Positions 1,028 to 13,464 of a stretch of 17,955 bases of DNA are shown piece after piece; position 1 is the first letter of the stretch; each line of letters begins with the position of its first letter. Made by a program: the position numbers and the translations under genes. Origin of the DNA: a virus. Taxonomy: Duplodnaviria; Heunggongvirae; Uroviricota; Caudoviricetes. The DNA lies in the IMG/VR virus record IMGVR_UViG_2529292723_000018. One strand, 5' to 3'. Below the pieces are notes generated by a model. That model saw only the letters and a program-made list of their open reading frames with translations, had not been told where the DNA came from and ran no database searches.

Positions 1028-2647
1028 TCATGCTCCACTCGATTTCAGTAATCCGCGATAGTCGAGGGCCGCGACACCTGCATCTATGCGCACCTTCCAG
1101 GCGACGCCATCAACAGTAAATCCCTCCTGCTCCTCAAGATATGGCGTATCAATACCATCAAGATAAGCGACCTCTATCGTGTCCATCCCCTTCGCCGCTG
1201 CCACATACCACTCCTTGTTATTGGCTTTATCAAGACGCGGCTCGACGATAACCTCTGCCATATCTTTCACCACGTTAATGATGCCGGGGTTCTGATTGAT
1301 AGTGCCTCCACCATCAATCGGAAAGAGTGATGACGATGACAGAATGGCGCGATGTGCGGCAGACTCCAGCGCAGCAGGGACCAGAACAAAAGCGGGGGTA
1401 ATATTCAGGGAGTCGCCGTTGCCATCCTCCTGTAATCGCATCAGCTTACGGGCTTCGTTAAGCCCCTCCATGTCCATATCCTTCGCAATAAGATTTTTAT
1501 GATCGGCATGGAATAACGCTTTACCATCCGTAAATTTGCCGTTGCTGGTTAACAGAAGATAAACCAGATTACCTACTGTTCTGGCGGCCGCACGCCCCAT
1601 CGCCATGGGGATTGTAGTTAACTGGGTCAGGTCATCGTTGATAATGGCCTGACGGGTAACAGAAAAAATATTACCGTATGTGGCCAGCGCAATAGGTACA
1701 CCTTTATCGCTGGTGGTGATGTATTTATATTCCGCACCTTCCGGTACTTTATCCAGCTTTGAAAAACCATTCAGACCAACGCGCTTTGCTTCATGAAAGT
1801 TTGAAAGCGATCCGGTACACGTCCATTTCTGGAACGTTTCGCCGCTGTCCTGCCAGCCTTTCAGCACTGATTTTTCAGCACCACCAGCCAGAATATGAGA
1901 AAAATCGCTGCTGCTGTGTGTGAAAGCTGCATTAACGACCTGCGAGCGATTTAAAAAATTGCCAACACTGATACCACGATCAGTTAGTGATGCCTGGGCC
2001 ATTTCAAAAAGGCTCATCATCGCGTAAGGATTTCCCCGCTCTGGGCGTTCATACCCGAGACGAGAATAAAGCCCCTGACGAATTGCATCGCCTGTTATGT
2101 TCCCGTTACCGGCATAAATATGAGTCGGGATATTTTTATTGGATGGCGTGGACTCGCGCCCCAGCTCGTTCAACAACTTTTCACGGGCCATCTCCGGTGT
2201 ACATGATGCATCCTCCAGGCACGCCATTTTGATCCCGTCGTAACGACTGCCGAACAGGCTAAACACTTCACTTATTCCGTTGATGCGCTTCTGTTCATTA
2301 CCAGCAATATTTGCCGCTCCCTGTGGCGGTGTAATCATTCCTTTAATGGTTTCCGGCATATGTAAAAAATCTCCTGTGCGTTTCGATTCAATTCGCGCCA
2401 TTACTCTGACGGATGGCAACAATTCATCAGCAAAACCGTGCTTAAGGCATTCTTTCCCATCCATCCAGGTTTCATCCTCCAGCATGGCGGTAATTTCCTG
2501 TGCTGATTTGCCCGTTTTTCTGGCATAAGCAGGGATTAACACGGTTTCCACCTTATCCAGCAAATCAGCATAATCACGCATATCGCCAGCATTTCCGCCA
2601 GAGATCCCCCACGGTTTATGGATCATCATGCAATACATTGAAATCAT
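1028..2647 (-). CDS. HK97-fold major capsid protein, C-terminal portion of a ClpP-like protease-capsid fusion; 5' part removed by insertion of element E2 (likely pseudogene fragment)
   Basis: About 80% protein identity by eye to residues ~104-638 of the intact fusion at 4671..6587; homology starts exactly at MMIHKPWGISGG; sequence upstream of 2629 is unrelated. Confidence 0.75.
   Translation of the reverse strand: MISMYCMMIHKPWGISGGNAGDMRDYADLLDKVETVLIPAYARKTGKSAQEITAMLEDETWMDGKECLKHGFADELLPSVRVMARIESKRTGDFLHMPETIKGMITPPQGAANIAGNEQKRINGISEVFSLFGSRYDGIKMACLEDASCTPEMAREKLLNELGRESTPSNKNIPTHIYAGNGNITGDAIRQGLYSRLGYERPERGNPYAMMSLFEMAQASLTDRGISVGNFLNRSQVVNAAFTHSSSDFSHILAGGAEKSVLKGWQDSGETFQKWTCTGSLSNFHEAKRVGLNGFSKLDKVPEGAEYKYITTSDKGVPIALATYGNIFSVTRQAIINDDLTQLTTIPMAMGRAAARTVGNLVYLLLTSNGKFTDGKALFHADHKNLIAKDMDMEGLNEARKLMRLQEDGNGDSLNITPAFVLVPAALESAAHRAILSSSSLFPIDGGGTINQNPGIINVVKDMAEVIVEPRLDKANNKEWYVAAAKGMDTIEVAYLDGIDTPYLEEQEGFTVDGVAWKVRIDAGVAALDYRGLLKSSGA
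2618..2629. repeat. left copy of 12-bp direct repeat ATGGATCATCAT (candidate att core, left junction of E2)
   Basis: Identical 12-mer at 12935..12946; both copies lie at the break points of the split protease-capsid gene and are in frame with it. Confidence 0.6.
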
Positions 2648-2696
2648 CCTACTGATAAATAAGATTAAAAATCACAATACAGATACGTTTGAGCTT

Positions 2697-2720
2697 CATT
2701 GCAATACGCATTGCAATACA
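2697..2720. repeat. tandem CATTGCAATAC(G/A) repeats near left end of E2 (candidate integrase arm-type or regulatory sites)
   Basis: Two tandem 12-mers; a near-identical tandem pair at 12781..12806 just upstream of the int start codon. Confidence 0.45.
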
Positions 2721-3069
2721 CGGTTGCTGGGTGATTTCAAAAGATGAATGCTGCGAAGGATGGAAATTTGGGAACTAGGTGGTGAATAGCACAACAAAAA
2801 ATCAGAATTCTACTAGCTTAAAATGATGCAAAAAGCATTCGTGGCATCGCAAGCGCTGTACAATTCGTTCTATAATGAAGAAAATTTCTAACAGACTTTA
2901 TCATTCAAAGGTGGAGGAGATGACAGCAATGCAACATGCATCACGCTCATACTTGAATTGTAAAGCTATCGTTAGAATCACAGCCTTTTTGTTCCGCTGA
3001 TCTAACGATAAAACTAGTGGTAAAAGGTATATTTTTTAATTTTTCAGACGCTGGCGCGGGGTAATTAAA

Positions 3070-3372
3070 ATGAAATTTGTAAATATACGGTCATCCGAGT
3101 TGCCTGAAATAGATACCTTTGTAAAAGAATGTATCAACCAAGGACAATGGACTCTTTTCAAGGCCGAGAAGGGTGCAGTTAATGATAATAAAGTTGCTTT
3201 TTTTCTAAAGGCTGGCAAAGATTTCTTTGCATTAAATAACAGAGGAAGTGTTATCTCTGTATTTCAATCATTAGATTATAATCTTGAAATGAATGAGGTA
3301 ATTCATTTTTCAGATATTCCTAAACCTGAATCGTTGAGCAATATTGCTAGCTTAGGATTTGCTAGAGTTTAA
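3070..3372 (+). CDS. hypothetical protein (100 aa), first gene of AT-rich cargo operon
   Basis: ATG at 3070; 18-bp gap to next gene on same strand; visibly AT-rich codon usage unlike the core genes; no recognised motif. Confidence 0.55.
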   Translation: MKFVNIRSSELPEIDTFVKECINQGQWTLFKAEKGAVNDNKVAFFLKAGKDFFALNNRGSVISVFQSLDYNLEMNEVIHFSDIPKPESLSNIASLGFARV

Positions 3373-3390
3373 TATATAAGGATATGTACG

Positions 3391-4281
3391 ATGGGATTAA
3401 TATCTGGAAATACACATTGGGTATTATTTTTACCTTGTGAGCACCAACCAGAAGATCGCCATGTTCAAGATTTAGTTCATGGCGTCTTTTGCTTAGAATC
3501 CTCAGGTATACAGCCATCTAATATTAGCATATATATTGATGGCCAAAATAGAGCCAACTTTAATAAGTTAATTTCGATTGCAACCCAACATAATTATACT
3601 ATCAAGCCTACATCTGAATTTTTCACCGACTGCGATACAAATAGTTATGAAAATCTAGTTATGTTTGTGACCGGACACGGAAGTATGAATGGTTTGGACT
3701 CTGCGCCGATCATAACCCCATACCGTTTATTGGACAGGTTAAAAAACACTCCTGTTCTCAAGCAAGCAATCGTTTATCTTGGTCAATGTTTCGCTGGTGT
3801 TTTCAACTACTTACCTGCTGGGCAGCGTAAGAGAGGTGAAGATGCCGACCCCGATGTCATTCTTATCGGGGCTACGAGTCTTCATGAAAGTTTGAGTAAT
3901 CCAACAACGGAAAATATTAATGGTATAGATTTTCCTTGGGTTGCAAATCAATTTTTATATCATGTATTTAAGTGGATATCATCCCCGAATGATATCGATG
4001 GGGATGGAAAACATACAGTAATTGACTCTTATAAGTATGCTGGAATCTCATCAAACATGACCAATCGTAGAATGAAGATAGGTTCTTTTGTAGCTTCGGT
4101 AGACTTGCATGAGCAATGGAATACTGCAAAAAAAGATCATGAAGCTAACTTGGCTGATCCACAAAAACTACTCCGTTATAGAGCATTAGATCAGCAATAC
4201 TATGAAAAACTGAACATTAACTATATTCATCAAGAGTGCTGGATATTAAATTCTGTACCTGCACAATCTGTTGAATTCTAA
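3391..4281 (+). CDS. predicted caspase-like (clan CD-type) cysteine peptidase, candidate His96/Cys133 dyad; candidate anti-phage effector
   Basis: TAAGGA Shine-Dalgarno 7 nt upstream; hydrophobic strand + His-Gly (NLVMFVTGHGS) and hydrophobic strand + Gln-Cys (AIVYLGQCFAGVF) 37 residues apart, the arrangement seen in caspase/legumain-type peptidases; AT-rich. Confidence 0.5.
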   Translation: MGLISGNTHWVLFLPCEHQPEDRHVQDLVHGVFCLESSGIQPSNISIYIDGQNRANFNKLISIATQHNYTIKPTSEFFTDCDTNSYENLVMFVTGHGSMNGLDSAPIITPYRLLDRLKNTPVLKQAIVYLGQCFAGVFNYLPAGQRKRGEDADPDVILIGATSLHESLSNPTTENINGIDFPWVANQFLYHVFKWISSPNDIDGDGKHTVIDSYKYAGISSNMTNRRMKIGSFVASVDLHEQWNTAKKDHEANLADPQKLLRYRALDQQYYEKLNINYIHQECWILNSVPAQSVEF

Positions 4282-4285
4282 TCCT

Positions 4286-4453
4286 TTACTTTTTTGAATA
4301 GATTGCTGCAAGTGCCGTTTTGAGGTCGTAATTTCGGCACTTGCAACTGCAACCAGAAATAGGGCGAACGTTTGACAAACGTTTAGCTATAGTCTGCCGA
4401 TGAAATCCAGTCACTTCCGCCAACTCACTTAAATTTAGAACTATCTTTTTCAT
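4286..4453 (-). pseudogene. remnant of Nu1-like terminase small subunit (55 codons, HTH portion only)
   Basis: Hand translation MKKIVLNLSELAEVTGFHRQTIAKRLSNVRPISG... parallels NINQLAAIAGICRQTAAARLKNIQPAGG of the 285..770 protein, then diverges; ends 4 bp from the stop of the convergent cargo gene; not in ORF track (under 60 aa). Confidence 0.45.
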
Positions 4454-4547
4454 CATAATTACCCTTCAGATGTCGAACAAATAACATACAATCCATCATC
4501 TTTTCCACTTTTATAAAGTTTTACCTAATAAAATTCAGTTAGTTAGC

Positions 4548-4632
4548 GAATGATGATGATGTCTATAAAATTCAAAAACTAGCCGTTTCCCGCGATGCCG
4601 CCGCCCCGTGGCAGGCATCCCCGCCGGGAGTA
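4548..4632 (-). other. lambda-like cos site (cos2) of element E2
   Basis: Minus strand reads CCACGGGGCGGCGGCATCGCGGGAAACGGCTAGTTTTTGAATTTT...CATCATCATCATTCG; same position (capsid 3' end to terminase remnant) as cos1. Confidence 0.55.
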
Positions 4633-4634
4633 CC

Positions 4635-4662
4635 TTTTAAAAAAGGGCAGCATCTGCCGCCC
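4635..4662 (-). terminator. putative rho-independent terminator after capsid gene
   Basis: Short GC hairpin (GGCAG/CTGCC) followed by a T-run on the minus strand. Confidence 0.4.
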
Positions 4663-4670
4663 TCCTGTCG

Positions 4671-6587
4671 TCATGCCGCCCCGCTCGACTTCACCATGCC
4701 CCGATAATCCAGCGCCGCCACGCCAGCATCGATACGCACCTTCCATGCAATACCGTCCACAGTGAAGCCCTCCTGCTGTTCCAGATACGGCACGTCCATT
4801 CCATCCAGATATGCCACCTCGATAGTGTCGGTGCCTTGCGCTGCAGTGACGTACCACTCCTTGTTGTTGGCCTTGTCCAGTCGCGGCTCAACCACTACCT
4901 GCGCCATATCCTTCACGACGTTGATAATGCCTGGGTTCTGGTTCAGCATACCGTTCTGGTCTACCGGGAACAGCGAAGATGATGACAGCACAGCTCGATT
5001 GGCTGCGCCTTCCAGCGCGGCAGGTACAAGGATATAGGCTGGGATAACATTAATAGGATCGCCGTTCGCATCCTCCTGCAGACGCATAGCCTTACGGGCC
5101 TCATTGAGTCCGTCTGTATCCATCCCTTTAGCGATGAGGTTTTTATGGTCGGCGTGGAACAACGCTTTACCATCTGTGAATTTGCTGTTGGCGGTCAGTT
5201 GCAGGTAGACCAGATTGCCAACCGTTCGTGCGGCGGCACGCCCCATTGCCTGTGGAATGGTCGTGAGCTGGCTCAGGTCATCGTTGATAATGGCCTGGCG
5301 TGTAACAGAGAAGATGTTTCCATAGGTGGCCAGCGCGATCGGCACACCGCTGTCGCTGGTAGTGACATATTTGTATTCAGCACCTTCCGGGACTTTATCC
5401 AGTTCTGAAAAACCATTCAGACCGACACGTTTAGCCTCATGGAAATTCGACAGAGAACCGGTCTTTGTCCACTGCTGGAAAGTTTCCCCGCTGTTCTGCC
5501 AGCCAGTCAGCACCGACTTTTCAGCACCACCAGCCAGGATATGAGAGAAATCACTGGTGCTGTGCGTAAATGCCAGGTTCACGATCTGCGAGCGATTCCC
5601 GAAACCACTGACGCTGATACCACGATCCACCAGCGAAGCCTGCGCCATTTCAAACAGACTCATCATGGCGTAAGGGTTTCCCCTTTCGGCGCGTTCGTGA
5701 CCCAGACGGGCAAAAAGCCCCTGGCGGATAGCATCGCCGGTAATGTTGCCGTTACCTGCGTAAATGTGCGCGTTACTGGTTTTATCCGATGGGGTCGAGG
5801 TCTTACCCAGTGCCGTCAGCAGCATGTCTTTTGCTTTTTCAGGCGTGCAATCCACATCCTCCAGACACTGCATCTTGAGAGAATCATGCTTGCCGCCGAA
5901 CATGGCAAACAGATCCTTAATCTCGTTGATGCGGTTCTGTTCCGGTACAGCGCTACTGGTGGAACCTTTCGGGCTGGTGATCATCCCTTTAATTTCTTTT
6001 GGCATATGCTCAAAATCCTCAATTCGTTTTGACTCAATACAGGCCATTGCCCTGACGGCGGGTAACAATTCGTCAGCAAAACCCTGCGCTACACATTCGC
6101 GGCCATCCATCCATGTTTCATCCTCCAGCATTTCCGCCAGTGATTCGGCTGATTTACCCGTTTTGCGTGCATATGCCGGGATCAAGACACTTTCGACTTT
6201 ATCCAGAAGTTCGGCGTAGTCGCGCATGTCGTTGGCGTTCCCACCAGAGATTCCCCACGGTTTGTGAATCATCATGAGTGCGTTTTCGGGCATAACGATA
6301 CGGTCGCCAGCCATTGCAATAACTGACGCCATAGACGCGGCGAGACCGTCGATCTGCACTGTAATTTTTGCCGGGTGTTTATTCAGAAGGTTATAGATAG
6401 CGATGCCGTCAAAAACATCGCCACCGGGTGAATGAATGTGCAGGCTGATATGGGAGATATCGCCTAGGGCTTTCAGGTCTTCGGAGAACTGCTGCGCCGT
6501 AATACCCCAGCCGCCGATCTCTTCGTAGATGCTGATATTGGCGCTGGTGCCATCGCTGGCCGCTTTGATGGTGTACCAGCCTTTCAT
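4671..6587 (-). CDS. ClpP-like prohead protease fused to HK97-fold major capsid protein (638 aa), intact
   Basis: ATG at 6587 with AAGGGGA Shine-Dalgarno; N-terminal ClpP-like motifs (GLAASMAS, MMIHKPWG); long C-terminal capsid-like region; ATGA overlap with upstream small gene. Confidence 0.85.
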   Translation of the reverse strand: MKGWYTIKAASDGTSANISIYEEIGGWGITAQQFSEDLKALGDISHISLHIHSPGGDVFDGIAIYNLLNKHPAKITVQIDGLAASMASVIAMAGDRIVMPENALMMIHKPWGISGGNANDMRDYAELLDKVESVLIPAYARKTGKSAESLAEMLEDETWMDGRECVAQGFADELLPAVRAMACIESKRIEDFEHMPKEIKGMITSPKGSTSSAVPEQNRINEIKDLFAMFGGKHDSLKMQCLEDVDCTPEKAKDMLLTALGKTSTPSDKTSNAHIYAGNGNITGDAIRQGLFARLGHERAERGNPYAMMSLFEMAQASLVDRGISVSGFGNRSQIVNLAFTHSTSDFSHILAGGAEKSVLTGWQNSGETFQQWTKTGSLSNFHEAKRVGLNGFSELDKVPEGAEYKYVTTSDSGVPIALATYGNIFSVTRQAIINDDLSQLTTIPQAMGRAAARTVGNLVYLQLTANSKFTDGKALFHADHKNLIAKGMDTDGLNEARKAMRLQEDANGDPINVIPAYILVPAALEGAANRAVLSSSSLFPVDQNGMLNQNPGIINVVKDMAQVVVEPRLDKANNKEWYVTAAQGTDTIEVAYLDGMDVPYLEQQEGFTVDGIAWKVRIDAGVAALDYRGMVKSSGAA

Positions 6588-6796
6588 TTTTCCCCTTCCG
6601 TTACAGCGAAGCCATTTTCATCAAGCCATGCGTTGACTGCGTGCCGGACTACCTGTGCCACTCCGGGCAATGGCTGGACAGGAAGATTTTTCAGATGATC
6701 GTTGCGGTATTGCTTAAGGCGTACAACGGTTTGCGCGTCCAGATGTACGGAGCCGCCTTTAGTCTCGCCAGTGTTTAAATCGTTAATGTCACTCAT
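6584..6796 (-). CDS. small conserved protein (70 aa) upstream of and translationally coupled to protease-capsid gene
   Basis: ATG at 6796 with AGAGGA Shine-Dalgarno (ORF-track start at 6844 is TTG); homolog at 13258..13464 (MSDINDLNTGE... vs MSCINDLNTGD...). Confidence 0.55.
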   Translation of the reverse strand: MSDINDLNTGETKGGSVHLDAQTVVRLKQYRNDHLKNLPVQPLPGVAQVVRHAVNAWLDENGFAVTEGEK

Positions 6797-6941
6797 GATG
6801 TCCTCTACTGTATAAGTAAACAGGTTATGATGATTGATCACCAAAAGTGGTAAGTGAACAATTTTTTATCTGAAAAATAGATTTATGATGAAAAAAAATT
6901 TTTGTATGGTCTTAGATTGGAATAAACAGAAAGGTTAAAAA

Positions 6942-7655
6942 ATGGATCTCACTCGTAATGACGAACTCCTTTTGAATGATGCAGCTAGACGCTCATTTCG
7001 GGATATGGCAGACCAGGATTATCTCTCAGCTCGTCTGTGTTATAAGCACAAATTGAATTTTCAATTTTTATGGCTTTCGCAACAAGCCGTAGAGAAATAT
7101 ATTAAAGCGATTTTACTTTATAATAGAGTTCCAGTATTAAAATTAAATCACAATTTAAACAAAGGGCTGGCAAAGATTAAAGAAATCCCATATCTTGAAT
7201 TAGACCTAGATGTAAAAAGTGAGCGATTCATAGATTATCTCAATGAGCAGGGCCCAAATAGATACTTCCAAAACACTATGTATACCGAAGGCTTTGAAAT
7301 TATAACCTTGGATAGAACCATCTGGGAATTAAGAAGATACTGCAAGCCACTAAACTACTCAATTACTAACCCAAAAGGTGAAGTGATAGAAATGTTAGAA
7401 CATGAATTGAGTAGCATAAAAAATTCGAAGTCGAGGCCTTATCATACGTTCAAACTATTTGGAGGTTACTTAGAAAAAAGATTAAAAGATAATAAATTCA
7501 ATCAGGGCGACATACTTACATGGAAAAATTTATTTTTTGGAAGAAATAAAAAAAATGCAATTAGAATTGGAAGATCAATGCATGTAACTCATCCAACTCA
7601 TTATATGTACCCAAATGCAACGGAAATGCTCAGTCGTTTCTTTAAAATAAAATAA
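6942..7655 (+). CDS. HEPN-like protein (tentative), candidate abortive-infection effector; AT-rich cargo
   Basis: N-terminal helix pair with QQAVEKYIKAILL resembling the HEPN QAxEKxLKA signature; R-x5-H (RIGRSMH) near C-terminus; opposite strand to flanking core genes. Confidence 0.5.
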   Translation: MDLTRNDELLLNDAARRSFRDMADQDYLSARLCYKHKLNFQFLWLSQQAVEKYIKAILLYNRVPVLKLNHNLNKGLAKIKEIPYLELDLDVKSERFIDYLNEQGPNRYFQNTMYTEGFEIITLDRTIWELRRYCKPLNYSITNPKGEVIEMLEHELSSIKNSKSRPYHTFKLFGGYLEKRLKDNKFNQGDILTWKNLFFGRNKKNAIRIGRSMHVTHPTHYMYPNATEMLSRFFKIK

Positions 7656-7744
7656 TTACATTCCAATTTTATTTACCGCTGTTAAATAAGTAAGGTATAT
7701 CTTTATTTATCGACATTGATAATCATGAAAGAGTATATCTTTTT

Positions 7745-7960
7745 TGCCGCACCTAGCGCATTTCTCACCGCACTTTCATCCCGCGCACTTAGGTGCGCAA
7801 TCCAACATGCACCGTACAGCCATTAAAACCAGTAATGGGGCGGGTTTGCAGGTGATTAATGCCAAACCGCGCACTTTCTTCGTATATACATGGAAAAAGT
7901 GCGGCAAGTGTATGTTTTATGAGCATTTCGCGCATCACGCGCATTTCTTGCCGCACTTTT
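7745..7960. repeat. iteron-like repeat cluster (TTGCCGCAC / CGCACTTT / GCGCATTTC, direct and inverted); candidate origin for the E2 replication protein
   Basis: TTGCCGCAC at 7745 and 7949, its complement at 7900; CGCACTTT four times; GCGCATTTC at least twice; lies immediately 3' of the replication gene, as the TGTTCACC iterons do in E1. Confidence 0.45.
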
Positions 7961-7964
7961 CAGG

Positions 7965-9374
7965 TTAAATTATCGTGATATCTCCTGAATCATCGATAAA
8001 GATAATATTCTCCCTAACGAGTTTATCAAGCCAGCGTTTAAAACCTTTGCGGCCGTTCTCTCCAAACAGAGTGGTAATATCATCACGTATAACAGAGACA
8101 TTACACGGTTCACCTTTGGCTTTTCGGCTCCGGATTGACTGCCAGAGTGCAGCGTGGTTCCCAGTCAGGTGCTTGATATCAGCAAGTTCCGGATCAGGTT
8201 CTCGTGCCTCTCGTGGCAGGTCCTGCACCACCAGCGACGAAATAAGCTCACCATCACGATCTGTGAACAATTCGATCGGACGCAGATCGAATGCGGCCTG
8301 TTTCGGCTCCTCCGCATCTTTCATCTTCGTACAGGTCAGGATTATCGCCCCACCATCCCCCTCGCGCCGGACATTGAACTCTGCATCGAGCGCAGCCCTG
8401 AAAGCACTGGAACCACGTGCGCCTTTGGTATCGTCTTTTCCTGAATGATGCACCACCAGCAACGTGGCGCCAGTCTCACGCTTGATGACGTCGCAGCCTT
8501 CAATAAACGCCCCCATGTCACGAGCATCGTTTTCATCGTTACCACCAAAGCACCGCGCTAGAGTATCTATGACAATCAGGCGAACCGGCTGCCCCGTTTT
8601 GGACTTAACGTCACGCGCAGCTTTGATCATCTCCTGCATTTCCTCACGGCGAACCGGGAAAACCGGACGGTTTACCAGATACAGATTATTTAGTTTCACA
8701 CCATGTTTTTTCTCCCACGCCTTTATTCGCCGCGGAACGCCAATACCACCTTCACCTACTACGTACATCACAGCGCCGGCTGATACCGACTTCCCCGCCC
8801 ACTTCATCCCGGCTGCAACGTGACAAGCCCAGGACACCGCCAGAAAACTTTTATACGAACCGCTCGGGCCGTAGATACTGCTCAGGCTGTTAGCGGGAAG
8901 ATAACTTTTTAACGTGTAATCCTGCTCCTGATCGTACCCATCAGAGCCCACGCTTAAAGGAAGGCTGTGCCGCAGTGACTCCTCTCGCACAGAGACTTCA
9001 ACCTGTTCACGCAGACGAGAAAGATATTCCCTCCAGTCCTCAGGCTCATGGTCGGGGATTCCTTTATACAATTTGGCATCCTGCACGCCAGCCAGCGCCA
9101 GCTTTTCAGCAATGTTATTAATCTGGATAGGCTTTATATTCCCTGCCAGGTAAATCCGCACGGCACGACGGCCATCATCCACAATGCGCAGGTTATCCAG
9201 CTCTGCCAGTTGTTTTGGCCCAAGGTAAACAGGAGGAGTGGTATCTTCGGCAATCTGTTTACCAAGCCCCTCTTCCCAACCCTTCGCATGGGCGTATGCT
9301 TCTGACCCGGCAAAAATAACTGCCTCCGTGAATTTTTCTTTTGGCAGGTGTTTCAGATTCGGTGCGTTTTTCAT
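7965..9374 (-). CDS. replication protein: N-terminal domain shared with the P4-family primase at 14246..16063 plus AAA_25/RecA-like ATPase (pri-rep type)
   Basis: ATG at 9374 with AAGGGG Shine-Dalgarno; deviant Walker A (YGPSGSYKSF); LLVVHHSGKD...RGSSA motif typical of RepA-like ATPases; first ~110 aa align with the E1 primase (KxAPNLKH...). Confidence 0.75.
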   Translation of the reverse strand: MKNAPNLKHLPKEKFTEAVIFAGSEAYAHAKGWEEGLGKQIAEDTTPPVYLGPKQLAELDNLRIVDDGRRAVRIYLAGNIKPIQINNIAEKLALAGVQDAKLYKGIPDHEPEDWREYLSRLREQVEVSVREESLRHSLPLSVGSDGYDQEQDYTLKSYLPANSLSSIYGPSGSYKSFLAVSWACHVAAGMKWAGKSVSAGAVMYVVGEGGIGVPRRIKAWEKKHGVKLNNLYLVNRPVFPVRREEMQEMIKAARDVKSKTGQPVRLIVIDTLARCFGGNDENDARDMGAFIEGCDVIKRETGATLLVVHHSGKDDTKGARGSSAFRAALDAEFNVRREGDGGAIILTCTKMKDAEEPKQAAFDLRPIELFTDRDGELISSLVVQDLPREAREPDPELADIKHLTGNHAALWQSIRSRKAKGEPCNVSVIRDDITTLFGENGRKGFKRWLDKLVRENIIFIDDSGDITII

Positions 9375-9694
9375 TTCAGCCCCTTATCCCATCCGTCAGA
9401 TCCAACACTCAGCGGCAGAGAAGAGCGCAGAGCAGCGATTTTTTTACGCACGTTTTCTTTTCCGGTCTCCTGCCACTCCCTGCTTTCCTCAGGGAGATAA
9501 ATAAATTCTTTTCGGAACCGGTACTCAGAAAAAATACACTCATGTGAATACCCATCCCGGACATACGTAATACGGCTATCCGTTATGCATGTGACAGTAA
9601 TTTTTTCTCCGCGAGAATCTTTCCAGCGACTGTTAAGCTCGATTTTTGGTTGAGCGATGCCCTCAAGCTGAACCTGATTGAATTTTTTAATCAT
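9371..9694 (-). CDS. small protein (107 aa), homolog of 16060..16359; C-terminal tail resembles the primase linker
   Basis: ATGA overlap with primase start; YVRDGYSHECIF vs YFIRDGYSFHSS in the E1 homolog; C-terminal LRSSLPLSVGSDGWD matches primase LRHSLPLSVGSDGYD. Confidence 0.55.
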   Translation of the reverse strand: MIKKFNQVQLEGIAQPKIELNSRWKDSRGEKITVTCITDSRITYVRDGYSHECIFSEYRFRKEFIYLPEESREWQETGKENVRKKIAALRSSLPLSVGSDGWDKGLK

Positions 9695-9698
9695 GAAT

Positions 9699-9878
9699 TT
9701 ATTCCTTGTCGGTAGCCGTTAAACCGTATGCTTCAGCAGCCTGACGAACTGCCTGGATAAAACCTTCCGGTGTGGCCACGATTTCGTCCGGACGAAGGCG
9801 GCGCTCTGTAACCTGACCGTTTTTAACCGTCACCAGTACGCGGATCTCGTAATCAGCAGGTAAGGCGGAGTTATCCAT
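9699..9878 (-). CDS. small hypothetical protein (59 aa from internal ATG)
   Basis: ORF-track frame 9699..10004; upstream part overlaps the better-supported gene 9871..10158, so start placed at ATG 9878. Confidence 0.3.
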
Positions 9879-10158
9879 GGCGCCCCTCCATTGGCACAGC
9901 TTCATTGCTGTAAGGATCGCTACCCAAGATGCTCCATAGGGTGCGATGTTCAGGATCCATAAACGACACTGAGAGCGGGCTTTCTGTTCGGATTTTGGCG
10001 GCAAAGGTCAAGTCCCAGCCGCAGAACTTTGCACGGGCAGTATCTTCAGTGTCTGCAATGGTGCGCAGAACTATCGGGAGACAAGAGTGACCTCGCGGCG
10101 TGCCAAGGAATAGCCATGTAAATTTTGGGCGAGTTTGGGTATGCTGTTGATCAGCCAT
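9871..10158 (-). CDS. small protein (95 aa), first gene of leftward operon; homolog of 16679..16883
   Basis: ATG at 10158 with GAGGT Shine-Dalgarno; shared KFTW motif and downstream pattern with the E1 homolog. Confidence 0.5.
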
Positions 10159-10190
10159 AACTGTTACCTCAACTAACGGTTTGTGGTTAG

Positions 10191-10239
10191 ACGTCCCGTG
10201 AGTGGTTCCAAGCACTTCCGGGACGTTGCTTTTTTCACG
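10191..10239. promoter_or_regulatory. conserved stem-loop (ACGTCCCG / CGGGACGT, 20-nt loop) followed by T-run, at the 5' end of the leftward operon
   Basis: Same structure at 16919..16965 in E1 with a compensatory pair (T-A replaced by C-G). Confidence 0.45.
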
Positions 10240-10248
10240 TCAAGCGTG

Positions 10249-10298
10249 ATAACGTACGTACGTAATAGCAACATCCTATGAGGTTACGTACGTACATG
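10249..10298. promoter_or_regulatory. two palindromic operator-like sites (ACGTACGTACGT core) between divergent RHH gene and leftward operon
   Basis: TAACGTACGTACGTAATA and TTACGTACGTACATG about 34 bp apart; second overlaps the start region of the RHH gene. Confidence 0.5.
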
Positions 10299-10487
10299 TC
10301 AACAATAAAACGAGATAAAACACCCAAAGGAGAGGGCTTGTCTCCGACATTCCAAATCCGAATAAGTCCTGAATTGCGCCAGCAGATGAATGAAGCTGCT
10401 GAGCGTGAGGGAGTAAGTCTTGGTAATTGGCTTAAAGGTCTGGCTAGAAATGAACTTATTAAGCAAGGAATTGAACCTAAAGGTTAG
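10278..10487 (+). CDS. ribbon-helix-helix (Arc/CopG-like) transcriptional regulator, candidate E2 repressor
   Basis: RISPELRQQMNEAAEREGVSLGNWLKGLARNEL fits a beta-strand plus two helices; true start may be ATG 10296 (MSTIKRDK); adjacent to palindromic operators. Confidence 0.6.
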   Translation: MRLRTYMSTIKRDKTPKGEGLSPTFQIRISPELRQQMNEAAEREGVSLGNWLKGLARNELIKQGIEPKG

Positions 10488-10540
10488 TTTTCACAAGCAC
10501 TCTTTGATTTTTTCAGTAAAAATTAAATTAAGGAAATTCT

Positions 10541-11251
10541 ATGGATGATTTATATACACCATCTGAATATTTTATGTTCGTAGAGAAATTTGATCATTAC
10601 TTCCCACGAAAAAGCCCTTTTAACTCATTATTATTCGAGTTCAATTATAGATTAGAAGATATAGTTGTTTTTCATCGCTTTGTTATCAACACCTATTCAA
10701 AAAATAAAAAAGCAATTGATGTACAATATAATAAATTTAATTTTCTTGATGATAAACAAAAAAATTCCCTTTCTGATGACGAGTATGAAGCGTATCAACT
10801 CAGGTTTGCAAGGCATATGGAATACATTAACCATCAAACTGATTTGAATGAAAAAGCGTCTTACATTGCTAACGATAGTGTCGTTATAAACTTATGGGCC
10901 ATGAATGAACAATATATGACTAGAGGATTGGCCAACCTAATATCTCAAAAAGAAAATAAAAATTTAAATGAAGTTAAAACGCCTTACAAATGGGATACAA
11001 TCAAAAGTAAATTCCTGTCATATGGAATCAACTTTGAGACATTGCCATCTTATGATGACATTAATGAATGTAGAGTACTGAATAATAAAATAAAACATCT
11101 GAACATAGTAGATTCTGGTTTAGAAGTTTTCCCTCCCTTCAAAGGTAAGCTTAACGAATCACTTACTGGCATGGCCTTTCCTCTTCAAAAATATATCATA
11201 GGCTCTCATCACTTTATAGGAATGCTATTAGAAGAGTGCTCATTAAAATAA
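10541..11251 (+). CDS. hypothetical protein (236 aa), AT-rich cargo in the RHH-alpA slot
   Basis: AAGGA Shine-Dalgarno; AT-rich, Asn/Lys/Ile-rich; the same slot in E1 holds only a 62-aa ORF; no recognised motif. Confidence 0.55.
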   Translation: MDDLYTPSEYFMFVEKFDHYFPRKSPFNSLLFEFNYRLEDIVVFHRFVINTYSKNKKAIDVQYNKFNFLDDKQKNSLSDDEYEAYQLRFARHMEYINHQTDLNEKASYIANDSVVINLWAMNEQYMTRGLANLISQKENKNLNEVKTPYKWDTIKSKFLSYGINFETLPSYDDINECRVLNNKIKHLNIVDSGLEVFPPFKGKLNESLTGMAFPLQKYIIGSHHFIGMLLEECSLK

Positions 11252-11255
11252 ACGC

Positions 11256-11292
11256 ATGGCAACGTATAATTTATCGCTTAATACGTTGCCAT
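11256..11292. terminator. 12-bp perfect inverted repeat (ATGGCAACGTAT / ATACGTTGCCAT, 13-nt loop) between convergent genes
   Basis: Lies between the stop of 10541..11251 (+) and the stop of alpA (-); no strong T-run, so terminator function is uncertain. Confidence 0.4.
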
Positions 11293-11297
11293 ATCTC

Positions 11298-11543
11298 TCA
11301 TTTATTTTTATCGAACCAATCTCCTTTAATCCAAGCTTGCATCTCTGAGAGCCGGTAAGCAACTGCTGACGGCCCAATTTTGATTCGCTTAGGAAATTTT
11401 CCTTCCTGTTCCATGCGCCAGCGCGTTGAGTTAGACAACGTAGTCATAGCCCGGCATTCAGGTTCGCGAATCATTCTGTCAAGGTCAGGCATGTACTGGA
11501 GATCTTCTTTTTTCACAACGGATAACATAGCCATATCAGGCAC
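11298..11543 (-). CDS. alpA: AlpA-family excisionase / transcriptional regulator
   Basis: MIREPECRAMTTLSNSTRWRMEQEGKFPKRIKIGPSAVAYRLSEMQAWI matches the AlpA pattern as recalled; start may be the internal ATG at 11492; 8-bp overlap with int. Confidence 0.8.
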   Translation of the reverse strand: MPDMAMLSVVKKEDLQYMPDLDRMIREPECRAMTTLSNSTRWRMEQEGKFPKRIKIGPSAVAYRLSEMQAWIKGDWFDKNK

Positions 11544-12771
11544 TCCTTTTCTTAATTACTTTTACTGTATTTTCTTCACCCACCAGCCCATCAAGGTAGT
11601 CAACCCATCGGTCCAGTGCTTCTTGCTTTTGAGGGATATACTTGCTGCGGTTATAGACTCCGGCCACGCCCTTTATGGTATGCCCCAGCAGCTGCTCTAC
11701 GACCATAAAATCAACGCCCATATCGTTAAGGCTTGTCGAGAACGTTCGTCTCAAATCATGTAATGACCAGCGTTTTTCATGTTTCAGAGAGATAAAGTTT
11801 GTGCATCCCATCGTACTGACGGTTGAATCAGATTTCAGTTCGCCAAATATGTAGCCTCTCCTTTTAGTCTCTTCGTGCAGGTTTACGATCCACTGGCGCA
11901 TTTTTTGAGGAACGGGGCGAATAATTTCTTCGCCGTTTTTACTGTGCTCTTTAGGTACTGTCCAAATCCACTTATCGAAATCCCACTCATCCCATGTAGA
12001 TAAACGCGCCTCACTCAGCCTGCAGCCAAACACGAGACACAAAATCGCCATCCTTTTTTTGTAATTCATTACACGGGTTTTGCCTTTACCATGAAAGTAC
12101 ACTCCCCACAGATCGGCGACGTAGCTTTCCTCAAGTAGCCGCTCTCTCTTGTTCTGATACTTACCGATATCACCAGGGCTCAAATCATCAAGCACATTGC
12201 ACCGCACATACTGGCGCACCCGGCAGTATTTGAAGATCTGCTTTAACTCAATCAGCATTGCAGCAGACTGAACCGGCGCGATTTTCTTTATGCGGTCGAA
12301 GCACTTGATCCAGTCTGACAGACCGCATTTCTCGACAGGAAACCCGCCGATGTAGGGAAAAATGTATCTCTCATAACGGCGATAGAGCCGTAAAGTCTCT
12401 TTGCGCTTTTCCCTGGCATAGTTATCAAACCAGTAATCGATAGCGTTCTTCACAGTTACTGGAGTGAACAGGTTCTCTTTGGTGAGTTTGTTCTCTATTC
12501 GTGGGTCGAGTCCCTGAGATAGCCATGCCCGGCACTCGTCCCTTTTCTCTCTGGCCTGTTTAAGGGTCATATCTGGATACTTGCCTAACGTCATCCAGAC
12601 GGGGGCGCTTTGTCGGCCGGAATGTCTGAAGAAATACACAAAGCTCACAGTGCCACTAACGCTCACTCTGACAGACAGTCCACGACCATCTGCCACCATC
12701 TTTTGACGCGGCTGGGGTTTACCATGTAAGGCCTTTAACGCCTTGTCGCTTAACTTGTTCTCGCCCGCCAT
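11536..12771 (-). CDS. int: P4-type tyrosine integrase
   Basis: N-terminal arm-binding pattern (GRGLSVRVSVSGTVSFVYFF...LGKYPDMTLKQAREKR); C-terminal catalytic-region motifs LHDLRRTF and LLGHT...VYNRSKY; adjacent to right junction of E2. Confidence 0.9.
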   Translation of the reverse strand: MAGENKLSDKALKALHGKPQPRQKMVADGRGLSVRVSVSGTVSFVYFFRHSGRQSAPVWMTLGKYPDMTLKQAREKRDECRAWLSQGLDPRIENKLTKENLFTPVTVKNAIDYWFDNYAREKRKETLRLYRRYERYIFPYIGGFPVEKCGLSDWIKCFDRIKKIAPVQSAAMLIELKQIFKYCRVRQYVRCNVLDDLSPGDIGKYQNKRERLLEESYVADLWGVYFHGKGKTRVMNYKKRMAILCLVFGCRLSEARLSTWDEWDFDKWIWTVPKEHSKNGEEIIRPVPQKMRQWIVNLHEETKRRGYIFGELKSDSTVSTMGCTNFISLKHEKRWSLHDLRRTFSTSLNDMGVDFMVVEQLLGHTIKGVAGVYNRSKYIPQKQEALDRWVDYLDGLVGEENTVKVIKKRSA

Positions 12772-13258
12772 AAAACCTCATTCTGCAATACACATTGCAA
12801 TACACACTTAACTGCAACGCCGAAAAACAGTAGAAAAGCAATGCAAACAACACCTCTTCTTTCTTCATAATTAACAATAAGTTAATGAATGAATACGGTT
12901 CTTCATGCGTACCCATGAGGTAGTGTGAAGGATAATGGATCATCATCATGGCGTTCTCCGGCATCACTACACGATCGCCAGCCATTGCGACCACCGAAGC
13001 CATTGAAGCCGCAACACCATCGATATAAACCGTAATGTCTGCCGGATGATTCCGTAGCAGGTTATAGATGGCGATGCCTTCAAACACATCACCACCTGGT
13101 GAATGGATCCTCAGATTGATATGTGAAACATCGCCAAGGGCTTTCAGGTCTTCCGCGAACTGCTTTGCAGTAACACCGAAGCCGCCAATCTCCTCATAGA
13201 TAGATATATCCGCCGCTCCACGAACATCCGCCGCCTTAATGGTGTACCAGCGATTCAT
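12719..13258 (-). CDS. N-terminal fragment of ClpP-like prohead protease (first 108 codons authentic; remainder is read-through into E2 DNA); disrupted gene
   Basis: MNRWYTIKAA...GVAASMASVVAMAGDRVVMPENAMMMIH is about 75% identical by eye to the N-terminus of the intact fusion, then diverges at the 12-bp repeat. Confidence 0.7.
   Translation of the reverse strand: MNRWYTIKAADVRGAADISIYEEIGGFGVTAKQFAEDLKALGDVSHINLRIHSPGGDVFEGIAIYNLLRNHPADITVYIDGVAASMASVVAMAGDRVVMPENAMMMIHYPSHYLMGTHEEPYSFINLLLIMKKEEVLFALLFYCFSALQLSVYCNVYCRMRFYGGREQVKRQGVKGLTW
12781..12806. repeat. tandem TGCAATACA repeats 10 bp upstream of int start
   Basis: CTGCAATACACATTGCAATACACAC; matches the tandem pair at 2697..2720. Confidence 0.45.
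12935..12946. repeat. right copy of 12-bp direct repeat ATGGATCATCAT (candidate att core, right junction of E2)
   Basis: Identical to 2618..2629; protease homology begins exactly here on the minus strand. Confidence 0.6.
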
Positions 13259-13464
13259 TATTCCCCCACCGATGCAAAACCATTCTGATTAAGCCAGGTG
13301 TTTACGGCATGTCTGACAATCTGCGCCACACCTGGTAATGGTTTGTCAGGATGATGATTTATATGGTCGATCCTGTACTGCTTAAGGCGCATAACGGTCT
13401 GCGCATCCAGATGAACGGAACCACCCCTGATATCGCCCGTGTTCAGGTCATTAATACAACTCAC
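13258..13464 (-). CDS. small conserved protein (68 aa), homolog of 6584..6796; GTG start
   Basis: GTG at 13464 with AGAGGA Shine-Dalgarno; stop overlaps protease ATG by 1 nt. Confidence 0.5.
   Translation of the reverse strand: MSCINDLNTGDIRGGSVHLDAQTVMRLKQYRIDHINHHPDKPLPGVAQIVRHAVNTWLNQNGFASVGE

Follow-up and report, generated by a model that had tools for sequence, protein, structure and literature searches.

The doubled TGTATTGC motifs on both arms of the attachment site described here are probably arm-type sites for the satellite's own integrase, as the original prediction had proposed. This is the best reading of the comparisons because the repeat sequence co-varies with the beta-sheet of the integrase arm domain, including in the pair L197/L210, because the two doubled motifs are spaced 212–216 bp apart, and because an IHF-like site is fixed in position. 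The presence of an arm domain, the fixed distances and the survival of the repeats as conserved islands also support it. The window, that is the whole stretch of 17,955 nucleotides that was analysed, contains a motif already published for exactly this kind of element. Since Tommasini, Mageeney and Williams (2023, NAR Genom Bioinform 5:lqad036; PMC10111431) described both the configuration and the doubled motif tgTGTATTGCantgTGTATTGCa of HE-PICIs, the finding as such is already known. Comparison of relatives adds doubled motifs of their own, in the same place and phase, in PICI integrases outside the HE-PICI clade, together with an apparent tracking of the arm sheet, and not of AlpA, by the motif and a fixed, putative IHF-like site.

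The insert occupies positions 2630–12934 approximately (10.3 kb) and is bounded by a 12-bp direct repeat, ATGGATCATCAT. Judged by its sequence, it is a helper-embedded PICI satellite that interrupts the ClpP-protease/capsid gene of another PICI, itself at tRNA-Ile2. That the inserted element is a satellite within a satellite had escaped the original prediction, as had the earlier publication of the motif. Its integrase probably belongs to the HE-PICI clade, and int-alpA precedes the replication and late zones. Junctions were set by aligning the attL and attR ends with the uninterrupted target gene of E. coli HS13-1. The principal features are as follows.

2618–2629, no strand: left att identity block ATGGATCATCAT (attL-side junction), from the attL/attR/empty-site alignment
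12935–12946, no strand: right att identity block ATGGATCATCAT (attR-side junction), from the same alignment
1028–2629, minus strand: C-terminal portion of the outer PICI's split fusion gene (ClpP-like prohead protease/major capsid)
12935–13258, minus strand: N-terminal part of the interrupted ClpP-like protease/capsid fusion gene, co-oriented with int
11536–12771, minus strand: int, P4-type tyrosine integrase of 411 aa (Pfam Arm-DNA-bind_3 and Phage_integrase)
11298–11534, minus strand: alpA, a Phage_AlpA family member presumed to act as excisionase/activator; adjoins the stop codon of int

Within the target protease, the right block contributes codons to the conserved MMIHKPW motif. Both int and the split fusion gene, which is intact in other E. 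coli genomes, lie on the minus strand, and the open frame of the N-terminal gene part continues to 12719, crossing the proximal motif and the int start. Genes follow one another in the order int, alpA, Icd-like, DUF4222, RepA helicase and capsid fusion, with a separate iteron cluster at 7740–7960, downstream of the helicase gene. A tRNA scan of the window found none, and five accessory proteins encoded on the plus strand had 0 matches in a PADLOC scan. Escape of the satellite's capsid-protease paralogue from self-targeting by synonymous core changes was considered and rejected as not general: it holds in the window, with two such changes, but fails in Kluyvera L004.

Six copies of TGCAATAC are present in the window, all on the plus strand (2629, 2700, 2712, 4746, 12784 and 12796), where shuffling gives a mean of 0.93 and reaches six in 0 of 200 shuffles. 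On the integrase strand the word reads GTATTGCA. CATTGCAATACGCATTGCAATACA is located at 2697–2720 and CTGCAATACACATTGCAATACACA at 12783–12806; each pair has a 12-bp spacing, the two share a common orientation, and together they form a 22-nt direct repeat with 95% identity. Exact 9-mers TGTATTGCA are confined to the arms within the window, while one-mismatch copies outside the arms are at chance level (12 observed vs 6.4 expected).

2700–2722, minus strand: int-distal doubled motif, reading cgTGTATTGCAatgCGTATTGCA; two half-sites 12 bp apart, matching the published tgTGTATTGCantgTGTATTGCa
12784–12806, minus strand: int-proximal doubled motif, reading TGTGTATTGCAATGTGTATTGCA; 13–35 nt 5' of the int ATG
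2629–2636, minus strand: extra single GTATTGCA, abutting the core and restricted to the ClpP-site group

Read from 2722 to 2700, the distal motif differs from the published tgTGTATTGCantgTGTATTGCa by a single change, in the second half-site, and the proximal pair stands immediately 5' of a GAGG ribosome-binding site (Shine-Dalgarno). Tandem repeats at both element ends had been predicted from the sequence, and their sequence, coordinates and common orientation hold, with a count far above that of shuffles. Given the junctions placed by the HS13-1 alignment, the left pair starts 70 bp inside its 12-bp block, as anticipated, and the right pair lies 128 bp inside its own (128–131 bp, with about 130 bp predicted). 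The span 2697–12806, on the other hand, marks the repeats, which flank the inside of the junctions, rather than the ends of the element. Likewise the right repeat is upstream of the integrase start, but at 13–35 nt instead of the 10 bp proposed. The single copy at 2629–2636 was considered as a third arm site and rejected: it occurs in the ClpP-site group only and is not kept as GTATTGCA in Kluyvera, where its counterpart reads GGGTTGCA and the conserved letters are TTTCAAnnnnTTG. On this sequence evidence it is probably not an arm site.

The integrase, which starts at an ATG at 12771–12769 on the minus strand, contains the Arm-DNA-bind_3 domain (PF13356, E=8e-21), and its residues 8–95 match the arm-type binding domains of PDB entries 3JU0 and 3JTZ. 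The arm-type DNA-binding domain corresponds to residues 1–95 (window 12487–12771) and is the proposed reader of the repeats. An AF2 model predicts strands at residues 24–27, 32–36, 42–48 and 58–65 and a helix at 70–85, with a pLDDT of about 85. Against a phage collection, the closest match of the integrase reached only 46.5% identity.

Relatives were collected by a pattern-first scan of viral contigs for the doubled motif and by an alignment-based metagenome scan, both far more productive than a genome-contig scan with the single integrase, which gave two relatives only. In relatives from Rahnella and Kluyvera, whose integrase is 93% identical, the far arm can no longer be aligned except at the two half-sites, which are conserved. 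The pattern-first scan also found the pair directly 5' of integrases only 49–54% identical; in these elements another pair of the same orientation lies some 10 kb off, at the opposite end. They are inserted in lambda-type genes for capsid (E), portal (B) and terminase, and the integrases seen in such E, B and A genes with this motif are 48–54% identical. Reconstruction of attP across five target-site groups gives 212–216 bp between the two doubled motifs, the present site measuring 213 bp between inner edges (70 bp, the 12-bp block and 131 bp). In the groups compared, the far pair is held 70–76 bp from the core, and the int-proximal pair occupies the identical place 5' of int in 53 of 53 distinct integrases of the TGTATTGC class. 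The repeats are thus distinct from the core, present on both arms and fixed in their distance from it, as is characteristic of arm-type sites.

Which protein reads the motif was approached through a protein-first sample of 87 distinct related integrases, in which pairwise counts are not phylogenetically independent. A 12-bp-phased doubled motif is found at the int-proximal place, and its sequence is clade-specific: TGTATTGC in 53 integrases, GTATAAA in 16, GTGTATCA in 7, GTGCAGTCA in 5 and GTGTAGTC in 2. Across the sample the repeat sequence varies along with the arm-domain beta-sheet and not with AlpA. Integrases that share a motif with bodies no more than 50% identical retain a median identity of 66% in the arm sheet (residues 25–62), whereas between integrases of different motif the arm sheets are only 39–58% identical even where body identity is 65% or more. 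The class-specific residues F44, P57, W59 and the S-x-RVS strand fall on predicted strands, and class-diagnostic residues are only modestly enriched in the first 95 residues (6/11, Fisher p = 0.02). Co-variation thus suggests that the arm domain specifies the site sequence, although integrase and alpA are co-inherited neighbours. Furthermore, elements that share hosts carry different motifs, and at this very locus each arm of the outer PICI bears a pair of its own, GGTATCCT-N3-GGTATCCT; this points to a reader encoded by the element and not to a host factor.

AlpA was the alternative binder named in the original prediction. On this explanation the repeats would serve it as a directionality factor and/or int activator, in the manner of P4 Vis and KplE1 TorI in their att arms. 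Its gene directly follows int, the two abut solely in elements with the TGTATTGC motif, and AlpA has been listed as a candidate and possible activator of the int promoter (PMC10111431). However, since the motif follows the arm beta-sheet across relatives and not the DNA-binding region of AlpA, this alternative is disfavoured and we consider it unlikely. Within the TGTATTGC class the presumed recognition helix is variable (SNSTRWRMEQ, SQAGLYRAEK, GRNHRYYLEK, SRRIRVDMEI) while the motif is invariant. The clean dissociation comes from sister motif classes and not from the TGTATTGC class itself: L197 and L210 have AlpA DNA-binding regions 100% identical, integrase bodies 72% identical and arm sheets only 39% identical, and their motifs differ, and across the pairs L197/L210 and L194/L212 identical or 96% identical AlpA regions accompany different motifs. 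In addition, the repeats form pairs on both arms at a fixed core distance, whereas directionality factors usually sit on one arm only.

The position of the int-proximal pair, 13–35 nt upstream of the int ATG and beside the ribosome-binding site, also invites the explanation that it is mainly an operator for int transcription or translation, the far pair being a by-product or second operator and recombination independent of both. Nearly every relative retains either a pair or one copy similarly near to int, and autoregulation by P4 Int and KplE1 IntS offers a precedent. Nevertheless, the nearest ORF start to the far pair is about 350 bp off, on the other strand, and the pair is still conserved in a diverged arm; moreover, the 70–76 bp to the core and the 212–216 bp between motifs constitute the geometry of recombination and not that of an operator. 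The repeats may overlap the integrase promoter region, as had been said, but a consensus scan of 12600–13300 found no sigma-70-like promoter on the minus strand between 12772 and 12946, no TAnnnT -10 was seen by eye between the right junction and int, and a promoter scan of the left end returned chance-level matches only. A primary operator role is accordingly very unlikely. Chance matches, replication-origin iterons, packaging signals or host-factor (IHF/Fis) sites complete the range of explanations. AT-rich short words do recur in AT-rich element ends, and iterons and cos sites do occur in satellites; against this, the observed count is absent from all 200 shuffles, the repeats are kept across genera and with integrases 49% identical, the iterons form a distinct cluster elsewhere (7740–7960), and the motif changes by element and not by host, with no fit to the IHF consensus. 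These sequence comparisons effectively refute such origins, which deserve next to no credence.

Taking the pairs as arm-type sites, we infer a binding mode, a stoichiometry and a bend from their arrangement. Each of four integrase protomers would dock its N-terminal domain, a three-stranded sheet, on a single half-site, with two protomers on the arm adjoining int and two on the far arm, and the core ATGGATCATCAT would be held by the C-terminal domains. A host bending protein at the IHF-like site would loop the arm back, so that integration and excision would take place in an intasome of lambda type.

12872–12884, plus strand: site TAACAATAAGTTA, one mismatch from the IHF consensus, halfway from the core to the int-proximal pair

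In the arms of the window alone, matches to the IHF consensus are not significant, about 25% of shuffles reaching the observed count. The site gains weight only because its position is conserved in relatives: in 7 of 15 lineages, which represent at least four target-site groups, an IHF-like site with 0–1 mismatch starts precisely 81 nt upstream of the proximal motif.

The published HE-PICI motif comprises two co-oriented copies, separated from the attP centre by about 81 bp on the upstream side and 132 bp on the downstream side, and the integrase arm domain, AlpA or another protein were left open as its binder (PMC10111431); no later test of the binder was found in the literature. The present element shares the tgTGTATTGCantgTGTATTGCa sequence, the co-oriented copies, int-alpA, the replication zone and the captured capsid gene, and its 213 bp agree with the published 81+132 to within a few bp, the reference points being unstated there. 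The target site, C:CLP_protease:110, is likewise shared, as is the nesting of an HE-PICI within a tRNA-Ile2 PICI, the composite measuring about 20.6 kb, and no difference from the published account was seen in the window. For related PICI integrases beyond the HE-PICI clade, that account states only that they lack the TGTATTGC motif (PMC10111431).

The arrangement also resembles better-known systems. Lambda integrase, a heterobivalent tyrosine integrase, uses the arm-type sites P1, P2 and P'1–P'3. Common to both are a separate N-terminal sheet domain, short non-core repeats on both arms and a bend site between; here, however, four half-sites form two tandem pairs in one orientation and strict 12-bp phase, the domain family is Arm-DNA-bind_3 of P4 type, and binding is predicted only. 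In P4 (Int/Vis) and KplE1 (IntS/TorI) the promoter of the integrase gene sits within the att arm, where the integrase represses it (PMC2951348, citing Piazzolla et al., 2006). Similarities to these systems include the P4-type integrase, the int 5' end abutting the att arm and arm sites adjoining the int start; on the other hand, no promoter was identified here by scan, and int points the same way as the late gene that the element interrupts. Because of that orientation, read-through from outside may drive int in the embedded state, and read-through expression of int has been proposed for HE-PICIs (PMC10111431). The autoregulatory operator suggested originally is plausible only by analogy with P4 Int and KplE1 IntS (PMC2951348), the scan having detected no promoter near the pair. 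As the int-proximal pair lies so close upstream of the int ATG, it is conceivable, though somewhat doubtful, that bound integrase also damps int expression as in P4 and KplE1.

A more speculative and rather unlikely extension is that arm sheet and doubled motif constitute an exchangeable specificity module, swapped together among PICI clades with similar catalytic bodies and identical AlpA. Nested or co-resident satellites (TGTATTGC inside GGTATCCT) might then excise without cross-talk, and the int-proximal pair might also act as an integrase-occupied gate on helper late-operon read-through, timing excision.

Comparative evidence points to the integrase arm domain as the reader of the motif, and natural pairs such as L197/L210 suit a clean arm-domain swap. 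Identifying the reader would help explain how the arm architecture stays constant despite repeated retargeting of the core to phage late genes, and how two nested satellites are kept separate in recombination.

The tandem repeats that the original prediction placed at both ends of the inserted element are present at 2697-2720 and 12783-12806, and position, shuffle test and shared phase all bear the observation out. The window contains six copies of TGCAATAC, all on the plus strand, against a shuffled mean of 0.93, with 0 of 200 dinucleotide-preserving shuffles reaching six. The integrase-proximal (near) and integrase-distal (far) pairs share a 12-bp phase; as a 22-nt direct repeat they are 95% identical. 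Exact 9-mers are found only at the element ends, one-mismatch copies elsewhere in the window being at chance level.

The doubled motif is a rediscovery, since its sequence, its spacing and the element type match the helper-embedded PICIs described by Tommasini, Mageeney and Williams (NAR Genom Bioinform 2023; PMC10111431), where the arm-site interpretation was also proposed. In that system 24 elements lie at C:CLP_protease:110, inside a PICI at tRNA-Ile2, in a 20.6-kb composite, so that this satellite-in-satellite special case (24 cases) had already been reported. The doubled motif tgTGTATTGCantgTGTATTGCa, stated as unique to helper-embedded PICIs, was described with two copies of the same orientation around the attP centre, 81±2 bp upstream of it and 132±2 bp downstream (PMC10111431). 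Within the literature library searched, no later publication was found that tests protein binding to the doubled motif.

The junctions were set by aligning both ends to the uninterrupted target gene of E. coli HS13-1, which gives an insert of about 10.3 kb with the following features.

Features of the insert
2618-2629 and 12935-12946: 12-bp identity block ATGGATCATCAT, from alignment with the uninterrupted gene
11536-12771, minus strand: P4-type integrase with an Arm-DNA-bind_3 domain
Abutting the integrase gene: AlpA gene
Elsewhere in the insert: genes for an Icd-like protein, a DUF4222 protein and a RepA-type helicase
Elsewhere in the insert: its own full-length ClpP-protease/major-capsid fusion gene
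3070-4281, 6942-7655 and 10296-11251, plus strand: accessory genes of low GC (28-38%), opposite to the main operon
12872-12884: IHF-consensus-like site, by consensus match

Within the ClpP-like protease, the att core (2618-2629 / 12935-12946) codes for the conserved motif MMIHKPW. At 6265-6276 the insert's own ClpP paralogue departs from the 12-bp core at two synonymous positions (GTGAATCATCAT); self-protection through such changes is ruled out as a general rule, as a Kluyvera relative retains the core. On the integrase strand, the excised form would run far pair, 70 bp, 12-bp core, 131 bp, near pair, 12 nt with GAGG, and the int ATG (12771). The inter-motif gap in the window is 213 bp, the sum of the published 81 and 132 (PMC10111431), and 212-216 bp separate the two doubled motifs in reconstructed attPs of five site groups.

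The ClpP-protease/capsid fusion gene split by the insert is 75-77% identical to the insert's own copy and is owned by a second small island, not a full prophage. Located next to tRNA-Ile, with mug and nfeF as its neighbours on either side, this outer island encodes an integrase, a primase and a DUF1441 protein of its own. In the window, as in L001 (NZ_CP024240.1 2387440-2410240), one satellite is nested in another: a PICI of 10.3 kb interrupts the capsid-protease gene of a PICI at tRNA-Ile2, with one integrase per satellite. The whole insert occurs in 5 of 5426 complete E. coli genomes, the uninterrupted gene in many. The accessory products comprise a HEPN-domain protein, a HicB-like antitoxin and proteins of 100, 236 and 296 aa; Pfam gave no match for the latter three and PADLOC none for any plus-strand accessory protein of the insert. 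These genes may be defence or addiction cargo. Directly downstream of the RepA-type helicase gene, an iteron-like CCGCAC/CGCGCA cluster (7740-7960) with a 34-nt direct repeat (7743-7776 and 7926-7959) and a perfect 14-nt inverted repeat (7895-7908 / 7947-7960) is probably the satellite's replication origin.

In elements of Rahnella victoriana and Kluyvera, whose integrases are 93% identical to that of the window and which have the same core, the int-proximal arm is 93% conserved throughout, whereas the far arm is unalignable except for two half-sites, which stand as conserved islands. A pattern-first scan of IMG/VR with GTATTGCA-N4-GTATTGCA returned 120 loci. At least 27 of these have the pair immediately 5' of an integrase gene (product 49-100% identical to that of the window), on the integrase strand without exception. 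In complete elements (10-11 kb), whose insertion sites are lambda-type capsid E, portal B and terminase genes, a second pair is found at the opposite end. A TGTATTGC pair at -47 also accompanies a 50% identical integrase in L130 (Salmonella, GCA_008381365.1) and L170-L174, which appear to occupy a chromosomal site adjoining plsY, not a phage gene, and may be relatives of the helper-embedded clade using a chromosomal site.

An alignment-based scan of metagenome contigs, selecting by protein and not by motif, gave 80 loci (integrases 44-100% identical), and with earlier loci a set of 87 distinct integrases. The TGTATTGC pair is present in 53 of 53 distinct integrases with an SFV-type arm sheet, the beta-sheet of the N-terminal arm-binding domain. 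In more distant relatives the pair keeps its place and its 12-bp phase but differs in sequence. The motif classes counted are TGTATTGC (53 distinct integrases), GTATAAA(C) (16), GTGTATCA (7), GTGCAGTCA (5) and GTGTAGTC (2). Among the metagenome loci L135-L214, PICI integrases 44-47% identical to the window's have 12-bp-phased doubled motifs GTATAAAC, GTGTATCAC, GTGCAGTCAG and GTGTAGTCAG at -20 to -75 upstream of int.

On these comparisons the motif goes with the arm sheet. Integrase pairs that share a motif, with bodies (residues 96-411) at most 50% identical, have a median identity of 66% over residues 25-62, against just 39-58% for different-motif pairs with bodies at least 65% identical, the pairs being phylogenetically non-independent and int and alpA linked. 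Overall identity is 49% for L208, a value common in the TGTATTGC class, but this integrase has the other arm type and a GTATAAA-type repeat. AlpA, the other reader considered, is disfavoured. The TGTATTGC class is the only one with alpA abutting int; its members vary widely in the presumed recognition helix of AlpA. The cleanest dissociation, drawn from sister motif classes and not from the TGTATTGC class, is that of L197 (GTGTATCAC) and L210 (GTGCAGTCA), which differ in motif despite 100% identity in the AlpA DNA-binding region, with integrase bodies 72% and arm sheets 39% identical. The pair L194/L212, with AlpA 96% identical, behaves likewise. The outer island has its own pair, GGTATCCT-N3-GGTATCCT, once per arm. 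Together, the tracking of the arm sheet, the dissociation from AlpA and this separate pair argue for an element-encoded reader, most probably the integrase arm domain. Solved structures of arm-type binding domains, 3JU0 and 3JTZ, match this domain, and in an AF2 model the class-specific residues fall on strands 32-36, 42-48 and 58-65. The original interpretation is partly supported: arm-type integrase sites are upheld by comparison, overlap with an int promoter is putative, and binding by AlpA is disfavoured, as the motif changes with the same AlpA. The outer motif, of unrelated sequence, is a second case of this architecture; its copies are co-oriented (L001 3108-3126 and, in L134, 1928-1946, outside the window), and an inverted single GGTATCCT copy lies just upstream of the outer PICI's int.

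In 7 of 15 lineages, spread over at least 4 site groups, an IHF-consensus site (0-1 mismatch) begins at precisely 81 nt upstream of the near pair; in the window taken alone, the site has no significance. In lambda there is a bend between core and arm sites, and by analogy the IHF-like position fits such a bend. IHF sites have been noted in attPs of other integrase clades (PMC10111431), and a high-affinity one in the P4 int regulatory region (PMC7286903).

A second, regulatory role of the near pair, which lies directly 5' of the int ribosome-binding site, is plausible because the P4 and KplE1 integrases, bound to arm sites near the start site, repress their own promoters (PMC2951348). Autoregulation of int by bound integrase would be a possible but tentative extension of this analogy; no sigma-70-like promoter was detected by a consensus scan of the stretch from the right junction to int. 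In the embedded state int points the same way as the interrupted late gene, and helper read-through has been proposed (PMC10111431). The N-terminal remnant of the split target gene (12719-13258, minus strand) keeps its reading frame open through attR, the near pair and the int start codon. Its stop, at 12719, lies 50 nt into int, and translation of a read-through transcript would take ribosomes over the int ribosome-binding site.

What is new here is only the comparative assignment of the motif to the integrase arm domain, as sequence relationships indicate it, and the doubled motifs of sister PICI integrase clades: where the earlier study reports only the absence of the TGTATTGC motif (PMC10111431), these clades have doubled motifs of their own, in the same position and phase.
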